25,029 nucleotides of DNA from the IMG/VR virus record IMGVR_UViG_2526164632_000026; one strand, 5' to 3'. Made by a program: the position numbers. Each line of letters opens with the position of its first letter. Position 1 is the stretch's first letter. The stretch is from a virus. Its lineage: Duplodnaviria; Heunggongvirae; Uroviricota; Caudoviricetes. This document shows, piece by piece, positions 6,001 through 9,000 of the stretch.

Positions 6001-9000
6001 CATTCGGTAACGCAGATCGGATGATTACGGTCCTTGCGGTAAATCCGGCATGTACAGGATTCATTGTCCTGCTCAAAGTCCATGCCATCAAACTGCTGGT
6101 TTTCATTGATGATGCGGGACCAGCCATCAACGCCCACCACCGGAACGATGCCGTTCTGCTTATCAGGGAAGGCGTAAATTTCTTTCGTCCACGGATTAAG
6201 GCCGTACTGGTTGGCGACGATCAACAATGCGATGAACTGCGCATCGCTGGCATCGCCTTTAAATGCCGTCTGGCGAAGAGTGGTGATCAGTTCCTGTGGG
6301 TCGACAGAATCCATGCCGACACGTTCAGCCAGCTTCCCTGCCAGCGTTGCGAGTGCTGTACTCATCCGTTTTATACCTCTGAATCAATATCAACCTGATG
6401 GTGAGCAATGGTTTCAACCATGTACCGGATGTGTTCTGCCATGCGCTCCTGAAACTCAACATCGTCATCAAACGCACGGGTAATGGCTTTTTTGCTGGCC
6501 CCGTGGCGTTGCAAATGACCGATGCATAGCGATTCAAACAGGTGCTGGGGCAGGCCTTTTTCCATGTCGTCTGCCAGTTCTGCCTCTTTCTCTTCACGGG
6601 CTATCTGCTGGTAGTGACGCGCCCAGCTCTGAGCCTCAAGACGATCCTGAATGTAATAAGCGTTCATGGCCGAACTCCTGAAATAGCTGTGAAAATATCG
6701 CCCGCGAAATGCCGGGCTGATTAGGAAAACAGGAAAGGGGGTTAGTGAATGCTTTTGCTTGATCTCAGTTTCAGTATTAATATCCATTTTTTATAAGCGT
6801 CGACGGCCTCACGAAACATCTTTTCATCGCCAATAAAAGTGGCGATAGTGAATTTAGTCTGGATAGCCATAATTGTTTGATCCATTTTTTGGGACTCCTG
6901 GCTGATTAAGTATGTCGATAAGGCGTTTCCATCCGTCACGTAATTTACGGGTGATTCGTTCAAGTAAAGATTCGGAAGGGCAGCCAGCAACAGGCCACCC
7001 TGCAATGGCATATTGCATGGTGTGCTCCTTATTTATACATAACGAAAAACGCCTCGAGTGAAGCGTAATTGGTATGCGGTAACGCCGCGCTCAGGCGGCC
7101 TTGATAGTCATATCATCTGAATCAAATATTCCTGATGTATCGATATCGGTAATTCTTATTCCTTCACTACCATCCATTGGAGGCCATCCTTCCTGACCAT
7201 TTCCATCATTCCAGTCGAACTCACACACAACACCATATGCATTTAAGTCGCTTGAAATTGCTATAAGCAGAGCATGTTGCGCCAGCATGATTAATACAGC
7301 ATTTAATACAGAGCCGTGTTTATTGAGTCGGTATTCAGAGTCTGACCAGAAATTATTAATCTGGTGAAGTTTTTCCTCTGTCATTACGTCATGGTCGATT
7401 TCAATTTCTATTGATGCTTTCCAGTCGTAATCAATGATGTATTTTTTGATGTTTGACATCTGTTCATATCCTCACAGATAAAAAATCGCCCTCATCTTGG
7501 AGGGCAAAGAAGATTTCCAATAATCAGAACAAGTCGGCTCCTGTTTAGTTACGAGCGACATTGCTCCGTGTATTCACTCGTTGGAATGAATACACAGCGC
7601 TGTGTTTATTCTGTTGTTTGCGTGAAAATGAAATCCGCCTGAGCGGGTTATGACCACTTTTTGTTTGGGTTTCGTTGGTGAGCGTGGTTTACAGGATTAT
7701 TTGATATACCCCATAACTCTGACTCGCTTATCTCTACACGAGAGAAAGACCTGCTTTCTTTCAGTTCTTTTATAAACCTAGAACCTAAGATGACATCTAT
7801 TGTACCAGAAAGTTCTTGTAAAAGATCTATGTTTTTTCTGAGGAAGAAAATATCTTCTTTATATTTAATTTTTACATAGAATTTATTCTGTATTTTTAAT
7901 ATATCAAAGCATGGCAGATATCTATATCCCTCATATTTTCGCCACTGCTTAACAATTATAACATCTTTTTCATTTACTGCATTAATCAGCCCAAGACCAA
8001 GTACAGGTATGAATATTCTATTGTCTGCCGAAAGCGTACAATTATCACCACCAGGCAAATATGTATAAATCATGTCGGAATTTTTATACGCATCAACGAA
8101 TGCACGTAAGAAGCGTACATATTTTTGCCATCCGTTTATACCGAATTTACCATATAAGTATTCTTTATTTGTTAGAAGAAAACTATTTGTATCAGGATCC
8201 TTATCTACAGACCTGTCGATAAGATCTCCAACTACGTTTACAAAGTCAAAGACAGAGTTTAATAAGAACAATTGTCTTTCAGTAGGGCGAATTTCAATTA
8301 TGTAGCCAGGATGAAGACGATATTGCATCTGCTTACGAAGTATACCGAACGCTTGGGTCCGAGCATCTGAAAGCAACTTCTTGTCGCCATCGCCGTGAGC
8401 ATTGTTTCTAATAAAACTGATATAATTTGCTAATTTTTCAGCCTCTTTTTTGTGTTTTTTTCGCTCTGATGCTGAGTCTATTGGTTTTGGTATGGACTTG
8501 TAATCAATCTTCTTCATTACGTACCTCATGCCAATGGAATGGATTCCCCTTTAACCTTTTGTCTTCCTTGACAAGTTATACCGAACTCACCTGGCTTGCT
8601 ATACCAAACTCGATGATTCTTGCGCTCAATACGTTGCAGGTTGCTTTCAATCTGTTCGTGGTATTCAGCCAGCACCGTAAGGTCTATCGGATTCAGTGCG
8701 CTTTCTACTCGTGATTTCGGTTTGCGATTCAGCGAGAGAATAGGGCGGTTAACTGGTTTAGCGCTTACCCCAACCAACAGGGGATTTGCTGCTTTCCATT
8801 GAGCCTGTTTCTCTGCGCGACGTTCGCGGCGGCGTGTTTGTGCATCCATCTGGATTCTCCTGTCAGTTAGCTTTGGTTGTGTGTGGGAGTCGTAGTCCTG
8901 AACGAAAACACCCCGCAATGGCACATTGGCAGCTAATCCGGATTCGCACTTCCGGCCAATGCTTCGTTTCGTATCACACACACCAAAGCCTTCTGCTTTG

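Follow-up and report, generated by a model that had tools for sequence, protein, structure and literature searches.

A phage 434 early gene between N and ea10 encodes a candidate Nun-class arrest factor with a predicted TnpB-like domain

The stretch of DNA analyzed here (25,029 nucleotides, hereafter the window; IMG/VR record IMGVR_UViG_2526164632_000026) is, judged by alignment, an integrated phage 434. Window bases 1331-25000 match the phage 434 genome (OL657226) at 99.6% identity, rising to 99.9% in the area around the gene considered below; bases 1-1330 have no match in phage 434 and are therefore presumably bacterial flank at the attachment site. As the alignment with OL657226 covers only 82% of the window, in four pieces, the prophage is unlike the laboratory phage in some segments. 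The subject of this work is a single gene of the pL operon, lying between N and ea10 (Table 1), whose product (CPT_434_48) ends in the polymerase-arrest peptide of the HK022 protein Nun. A preliminary description of the window had recognized a prophage and had placed in this slot, where lambda carries ral and sieB, an open reading frame (ORF) of 293 amino acids that is more AT-rich than its flanks and is followed by a hairpin with a T-run, and these points are borne out. The ORF is present on the minus strand, with a GC content of 0.346 (GC3, 0.303) versus 0.488 for N and 0.469 for the window, and the hairpin coincides with a terminator annotated in GenBank. In megablast comparison with lambda the matches are confined to the flanking N and ea10, the lambda interior there comprising ral, orf28 and sieB. 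The 434 gene is like ral and sieB in its place between N and ea10 in the pL operon, and no likeness to either was found by this comparison or by Pfam, PHROG, NCBIfam and PADLOC scans.

The 293-residue reading begins at the first ATG (position 8529), which overlaps the N stop codon as ATGA and from which co-translation with N had been proposed in the preliminary description. The overlap is present and the coupling stands, but no Shine-Dalgarno precedes this ATG in the sequence, and 8529 is probably not the start in use. Translation likely begins at the second ATG (position 8517), which is preceded by a GAGG Shine-Dalgarno with a 6-nucleotide spacer; because this Shine-Dalgarno overlaps the N stop codon, translational coupling to N still holds. 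The second ATG is also the start in the GenBank record (289 amino acids), which marks a ribosome-binding site within the four-codon upstream segment, in PHROG 12139 (profile positions 1-289 correspond to residues 5-293 of the longer reading), and in all homologues. Residues are accordingly numbered on the 289-residue protein, and only PHROG matches are given on the 293-residue reading. The protein is basic (isoelectric point, pI, 9.5), and its gene is carried intact by 83 of 5426 complete E. coli genomes, in all cases on the chromosome.

Table 1. Features of the gene, its predicted protein and its surroundings (window coordinates; AF2, AlphaFold 2; pLDDT, predicted local distance difference test score)
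Feature	Window position	Strand	Residues	Basis
293-residue reading from the first ATG	7648-8529	minus		ORF between N and ea10
Coding sequence of the 289-residue protein CPT_434_48, stop included	7648-8517	minus	1-289	likely start at second ATG; GenBank coding sequence
Four-codon upstream extension from the first ATG	8518-8529	minus		ATG 8529-8527 overlaps N stop TGA 8528-8526; contains GAGG 8524-8527
Helical hairpin, predicted, basic (pI 10)	8314-8517	minus	1-68	AF2 helices 16-38 and 43-65; lambdoid clade only
Core domain, predicted TnpB/Cas12-like WED-REC-WED topology	7858-8313	minus	69-220	one strand, four-helix bundle, beta-barrel
Single strand			72-77	AF2
Four-helix bundle			80-145	AF2
Beta-barrel			152-217	AF2
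Long alpha-helix, predicted	7741-7851	minus	223-259	AF2; where TnpB would continue into RuvC
Linker motif, start of disordered tail	7720-7758	minus	254-266	conservation; pLDDT <50 from residue 256
Disordered tail			256-289	AF2
Nun RNA-polymerase-arrest peptide and stop	7648-7692	minus	276-289	identity to HK022 Nun 96-109 (PDB 6ALG chain N)
DNA block in common with nun-carrying phages	7466-7693	minus		blastn vs L007, L008 and HK022
Intrinsic-terminator-like hairpin and T-run	7477-7507 (hairpin 7486-7507)	minus		scan; OL657226 terminator annotation
N, lambda-type antiterminator gene, immediately upstream	8526-8849	minus		Pfam N36, E 1.8e-26; GenBank annotation
ea10, next gene downstream	7091-7459
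nutL boxB hairpin, lambda type	9007-9021	minus		hairpin scan; GenBank nutL stem-loop at same place

The C-terminus of the protein is its most telling part. The last 14 residues (VNHAHQRNPNKKWS) are identical to those of HK022 Nun (P18683; PDB ID: 6ALG chain N; PHROG 5632), and every cleft contact of Nun from N97 to S109 is included (N97, H98, H100, R102, K106, K107, W108 and S109 all being present). The absence of recognizable family motifs reported in the preliminary description was therefore mistaken. Its view of the gene as undescribed also needs correction, as the 2022 GenBank record of phage 434 names the product "Nun C-terminal peptide-containing protein" on the basis of BLASTp similarity to Nun of HK022, though the accompanying genome announcement does not mention the gene. 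The Nun-like profile PHROG 5632 (phrog_5632) matches only the last 20 residues (274-293 of the 293-residue reading), and hhalign comparison with Nun, at a probability of 96%, widens the match to 27 columns. In the Nun complex residues 87-109 occupy the polymerase cleft: N97, H98 and H100 touch the beta-prime rudder, the RNA and the template strand, R102-S109 touch polymerase subunits, RNA and DNA, and the pocket that receives W108 includes beta-prime D329 (PMC5386594). By inserting between the nucleic acids and polymerase (beta-prime rudder, zipper and lid), the peptide blocks translocation, and removal of the last 13 residues leaves Nun inactive and unable to bind polymerase (PMC5386594).

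Conservation of this tail extends well beyond phage 434. It is kept by 5 of 5 full-length lambdoid homologues, with V-N-H-A-H-x-R-x-x-x-K-K-W invariant in homologues of 68%, 47%, 46%, 41% and 36-37% identity, and no other 14-residue stretch of the protein is so well conserved (0.79 versus 0.47 overall; rank 1 of 282). Relative to 434, the tail codons contain 8 synonymous changes in one homologue (L004; letters with numbers denote our loci, L, and proteins, P) and 6 in another (L013), with four conservative replacements only. On these comparisons the tail is under selection and not merely a recombination scar. When the tail alone was used as query, proteins of 70-81 amino acids with the same tail behind differing arginine-rich N-termini were recovered, as were mini-proteins of 37-48 amino acids, barely more than the Nun tail, in Proteus, Providencia, Photorhabdus, Serratia and Raoultella (small proteins P0042, P0046, P0053-P0055 and P0039-P0045). 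Since it occurs behind such varied arginine-rich N-termini, the tail behaves as a portable module. The small proteins also suggest that Nun-like factors form a broader family of differing specificity. In the long form the tail is preceded by a disordered linker of about 20-30 residues containing the motif ESRSFSRVEISES, of which E254, S255 and R260 do not vary anywhere in the lambdoid clade (alignment A6), and S257, F258, S259, E262, I263, S264, E265 and S266 are invariant in the four-sequence alignment A2 only.

The AT-rich, foreign-looking composition of the gene and the very small size of its family (PHROG 12139, function unknown; 4 clusters in 5.8 billion proteins on a first pass) could be those of mosaic debris, unexpressed or without selected function. 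However, the ORF is intact in all 83 of the genomes noted above, it has a good Shine-Dalgarno coupled to N, its full length and its motifs are kept in homologues down to 36% identity, and its predicted fold (see below) is a confident one; debris is scarcely a credible explanation.

A survey of gene neighborhoods, which the preliminary description had proposed, revealed that the slot has more than one occupant. In a metagenomic lambdoid phage (L004) a homologue of 42% identity lies directly after a cI-type repressor gene and an HK022-type oL/pL/putL region, and there is no N gene; within this region (L004 2800-3110) putL is about 96% identical to the HK022 type. A put-dependent phage with an HK022-type putL thus has a long Nun-tail gene as a different occupant of the nun slot. 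The long form follows lambda-type N in 434 and in two other loci (L006 and L013), and in two E. coli prophages (L007 and L008) a full-length nun (L007 3001-3345; L008 3001-3647) directly follows an N-like gene of another type (PHROG 271). In the first of these prophages RefSeq records only a 73-residue C-terminal fragment, and the full 112-residue frame is open from an upstream start. Taken together, these gene orders show that one slot is filled by either nun or the long form, in N-type and put-type phages alike. Phage 434 has a lambda-type N and a boxB hairpin (GCCCTGAAGAAGGGC, which we take to be the lambda boxB sequence), and its own transcripts would therefore come under attack from a true Nun, a protein that binds lambda boxB.

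Kinship with nun-carrying phages is also seen in the DNA. A block of 93-96% identity starts at the tail valine codon, takes in the tail codons and the whole structured 3' untranslated region (UTR), and ends at the terminator; the HK022 copy is interrupted by IS903. In the 434 allele, then, the tail begins at a mosaic joint of recent origin. It was accordingly considered whether the tail is a recombination scar alone, an idea that was rejected as the whole story: the joint is real in 434, but the diverged homologues keep the tail with synonymous changes. The 3' UTR (7460-7647, minus strand) is strongly structured as an RNA of ~190 nucleotides (z = -5.96 versus shuffles) and contains a 14-bp perfect hairpin, a small GC hairpin immediately beyond the stop codon, and the terminator (stem GCCCTC/GAGGGC), which stands about 140 nucleotides beyond the stop codon and just upstream of ea10. 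It could be a regulatory or processing element that moves with the Nun tail. Rfam gave no match near the gene or in related loci. The sole Rfam match in the window is the cIII thermoregulator RNA (RF01804, 88.5 bits; 6973-7031, minus strand, upstream of cIII), which is expected in a lambda-like pL operon.

The body of the protein was modeled with AF2 from an alignment of 29 sequences, to a pLDDT of 83.4 and a predicted template-modeling score (pTM) of 0.78; a four-sequence alignment had given a pLDDT of only 43, and it was the addition of distant relatives from a full hidden Markov model search that made the model usable. Residues 4-255 are predicted to be folded. The N-terminal helical hairpin is missing from the distant relatives P0010-P0016, which begin at the strand that follows it, and the core is predicted to have the order of elements found in the WED and REC domains of TnpB and Cas12 nucleases. 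In Foldseek comparison with the PDB the top match is ISDra2 TnpB (E 0.049, probability 0.97), followed by Cas12f-type entries, and in the viral library BFVD the top matches are giant-virus TnpB-type transposases; the structural check advised in the preliminary description has thus returned a confident model with TnpB as its top match. The likeness had been foreseen from sequence motifs before the model was seen, and was then checked by hhalign against eight plasmid TnpB N-termini (P 0.003 local and 0.0002 global; reversed control 0.34). In the 434 protein YIIEIRPTERQ is collinear with YKFRIYPNQAQ, NRIFIPVLGLGLI with NKIKLPKLGLVRF, and NKFYVKIKY with GRYFVSLLV. Because the HH-suite probability is just 7-20%, the assignment to a TnpB-like fold rests mainly on the predicted structure, and it is regarded as quite likely.

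Compared with TnpB and Cas12 proteins (ISDra2 TnpB, 8H1J/8BF8; ISFba1 TnpB, 8IAZ; Cas12n, 9UDI; Cas12f; Cas12p), residues 69-220 of the model supply the WED strand, the REC bundle and the WED barrel. Unlike them, the 434 protein has no RuvC domain, catalytic residues or zinc-finger/TNB domain, and a helix and the Nun tail stand where RuvC would begin. No RuvC, active or degenerate, was found: the barrel is followed in the model by one helix and the disordered tail, the hhalign match ends at WED/REC, and there is no Pfam OrfB_IS605 match. Likewise no zinc-finger domain was found (no OrfB_Zn_ribbon match, and no Cys/His cluster besides the tail histidines), and a profile search of the PDB returned a chance peptide match only. 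The 434 gene also differs from the TnpB and Cas12 genes in having no transposon context or guide-RNA evidence, and the sequence relationship is marginal.

If the fold is right, the 434 protein may also be likened to TldR and dCas12f-sigmaE, which reportedly are TnpB-family scaffolds encoded by temperate phages and acting on host polymerase. These are reported to keep an inactivated RuvC and a guide RNA and to serve as DNA-bound roadblocks or sigma-factor recruiters, whereas the 434 protein would have lost RuvC entirely and would carry, by analogy with Nun, a peptide that enters the cleft. Such reported nuclease-dead precedents, together with the predicted resemblance to TnpB/Cas12 and with the structured RNA directly after the ORF, where TnpB guide RNAs are encoded, raise the question of an RNA-guided transcription blocker, in which WED/REC would bind a guide RNA (as in TnpB, TldR and dCas12f) and the tail would arrest polymerase at the guided sites. 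In TnpB, however, much of the guide-RNA scaffold is held by the RuvC and zinc-finger domains that were not found here; the structured 3' region also accompanies short nun genes, which have no core domain; it is absent at other loci of the family (the downstream gap is 46 nucleotides in L004 and about 34 nucleotides in BREX-type loci); and it has no Rfam match. RNA guidance is therefore very improbable, and a reading of the 3' UTR itself as guide RNA was considered and set aside as unlikely, the region moving with short nun genes and being missing from other family members.

A profile search of 1.8 billion representatives yielded 24 relatives. The distant ones (210-330 amino acids, 15-25% identity) have in common with the 434 protein the central domain and the linker motif S..Y.RvdF (SFSRVEIS in 434), and they end in GGLPSLGKRR and not in the Nun peptide; PHROG 12139 weakly matches two of them through the core domain. 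Three of these relatives (P0027, P0031 and P0033) are encoded between brxC and a pglX-type methyltransferase gene in loci that also contain brxB, with a WYL regulator upstream in the P0027 and P0033 loci. A fourth (P0028) has ParB-N, NYN and RelA/SpoT genes and a PLD-DUF1998-helicase cluster as neighbors, the setting of a defence island. From these contexts, the core domain also occurs in defence loci. The BREX-linked genes lie at 8001-8831 in L009, 8001-8867 in L014, 4390-5256 in L015 and 8001-8867 in L016; in the longer loci (L009, L014 and L015) two unknown genes, an Hsp70-family gene and a second methyltransferase gene follow. The BREX-linked proteins (276-288 amino acids), for which PADLOC, Pfam and NCBIfam gave no match, are similar in size to the 434 protein, are homologous to it in the core domain and the linker motif (profile E 1e-14 to 1e-4), and likewise end in a short conserved basic tail. 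They differ from it in the sequence of that tail, in having no N-terminal helical hairpin, and in being encoded by chromosomal genes of defence loci, whereas the 434 gene and its close homologues lie in lambdoid pL operons and not in BREX loci.

That the core is common to brxC-pglX proteins without a Nun tail opens a further possibility, namely that the tail is incidental and that the function resides in the TnpB-like core, as a DNA-binding regulator or as a decoy or antagonist of a BREX-type component. The position of the 434 tail at a recent mosaic joint common to nun phages, and the presence in lambda of the restriction-alleviation gene ral in the same slot, are in keeping with this idea. 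But the tail is the most conserved segment in the lambdoid clade and has diverged there at synonymous sites, none of the five full-length lambdoid homologues has lost it, and its invariant residues are the polymerase contacts of the Nun structure. An incidental tail is thus distinctly unlikely.

Comparison with HK022 Nun itself shows how the two proteins may correspond. Both are encoded by first genes of a pL operon, directly after pL-put or after the N gene; they have the downstream untranslated region and terminator in common; and each consists of a targeting module, a flexible linker and the arrest peptide, the targeting role being in 434 a presumed one. They differ in size (289 amino acids versus 109-112 for Nun) and in the N-terminal part, predicted to be a folded domain of 250 residues in 434 and a disordered peptide in Nun. 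Nor does the 434 protein have the arginine-rich motif by which Nun binds boxB. A K-rich segment at residues 15-32 (SERKKHKKEAEKLANY), which by eye resembles AEKQAQW of lambda N and WEKRIAY of Nun, was considered as such a motif and rejected because its aromatic and basic positions are not conserved in the homologues P0003-P0005, where Y is replaced by C and basic residues are lost. Finally, expression of the 434 gene is apparently from pL alone, whereas nun of HK022 reportedly has a constitutive prophage promoter, Pnun, said to have been described by King et al. in 2000.

On balance, and with slightly better than even confidence, the 434 gene product is regarded as a modular Nun-class arrest factor in which a TnpB-like domain takes the place of the targeting arginine-rich motif. 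Soon after infection or induction, the gene would be read from pL and its product made alongside N. The basic TnpB-like domain would act as the targeting module in place of the boxB-binding motif by binding a feature of the DNA or of the nascent RNA; by analogy with Nun residues 44-86, which emerge from the complex close to upstream DNA and the RNA exit channel (PMC5386594), it may be placed at that site. Its binding would raise the local concentration of the tail, which would then enter the cleft of the elongating polymerase and block translocation. Early transcription complexes of the phage itself carry the N modification (in the HK022-type relative, that of put RNA) and may be spared: Nun-dependent termination is overcome by polymerase modified by put, and lambda N reaches the catalytic cavity with its C-terminus, following the hybrid (PMC8632103), which makes self-immunity plausible. 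The likely role would be the shut-down of transcription of competing phages (co-resident or co-infecting), and possibly of the host, in lytic growth.

A less selective action is also to be considered, in which any unmodified polymerase would be arrested without sequence targeting, in a general takeover of the host, the large domain providing stability, dimerization or polymerase docking. Nun is toxic when overexpressed, arresting host polymerase without specificity (PMC5386594), the 434 gene is judged from its position to be co-expressed with N from a strong early promoter, and the resistance of put-modified polymerase to Nun and the course of the N C-terminus, both cited above, fit this explanation as well. 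Yet lambda grows well without such a factor; a conserved fold of 250 residues, predicted to bind nucleic acid, exceeds the needs of a non-specific inhibitor, proteins of 37-48 residues with a Nun tail being in existence; and late transcription of 434 relies on Q-modified polymerase, which may not be immune. General host takeover is accordingly judged unlikely, if worth keeping in mind.

Several points weigh against a targeted Nun-class factor with a TnpB-like domain. Within the Nun segment visible in the cleft, residues 87-95 are not conserved in the 434 protein; Nun H93 and R94, which contact the upstream DNA duplex (PMC5386594), have as counterparts N273 and N274, and these positions vary among homologues. 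Taken by itself, the 434 tail could pass for a mosaic joint, and the different tail of the BREX-linked relatives implies that the function of the core needs no Nun peptide. The TnpB relationship depends on a structure predicted from 29 sequences, with a low hhalign probability and a Foldseek E of 0.05, which is moderate; Pfam, NCBIfam and PADLOC hold no family for the 434 protein or its relatives (among the PADLOC-DB v2 defence models the 434 protein and 10 relatives had no match bar a chance-level one to Cas3-HD, E 0.04); and for a WED-REC module without RuvC, nucleic-acid binding is here a prediction. Literature searches (the gene; phage 434 and Nun; Nun and TnpB) returned no study of the protein. 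Between pL and the start codon a consensus scan, which weak promoters or read-through from pRM could escape, found no promoter-like site (both minus-strand sites found are inside the ORF), and a repressed lysogen therefore probably does not express the gene, so that early-lytic action fits better than classical prophage-mediated defence. The candidacy for defence or exclusion that was put forward in the preliminary description is thus upheld in part: the protein has the effector peptide of Nun, a classic superinfection-exclusion protein, and has relatives in BREX-like loci and a defence island, whereas classical exclusion by a repressed lysogen is doubtful.

Elsewhere in the window, an ORF for the 'repressor protection' protein Hex (9277-9675, minus strand) lies downstream of the 434 repressor gene and overlaps the end of cI (9600-10232). 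GenBank cites PMID 23303392 for it and notes that the published start codon is wrong; the product has a signal-peptide-like hydrophobic stretch.

Within the libraries searched, the Nun peptide as a conserved portable module, its fusion to a nuclease-less TnpB-like WED/REC domain, and the building of the same core domain into BREX-like loci all appear to be new. Nun has so far been treated as a one-off, a small disordered protein in which an RNA-binding motif delivers a polymerase-jamming peptide; the present results suggest that the arrest peptide is portable, being joined to many arginine-rich motifs and, here, to a domain of ~250 residues that resembles the half of TnpB by which DNA and RNA are recognized, possibly a case of TnpB exaptation with the nuclease half discarded. 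A bolder extension, at present a long shot, is that the core is a TnpB-derived, RuvC-less sequence reader, possibly bound to a guide RNA, that delivers a polymerase-jamming peptide to chosen complexes, the phage branch with the Nun tail and the BREX branch with GGLPSLGKRR; were such a reader of RNA or DNA real, it would amount to a programmable transcription-arrest device. Through its core domain, which BREX-like loci also encode, a lambdoid early gene is connected to a defence system that is not yet understood mechanistically. Should the peptide act here as it does in Nun, phage 434, a founding model phage, has an unstudied arrest factor with a new kind of targeting domain, and tools exist to find its target and to see how N-modified polymerase is protected from it. 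The fusion suggests a new manner of directing a known block to polymerase against a rival phage or against the host.

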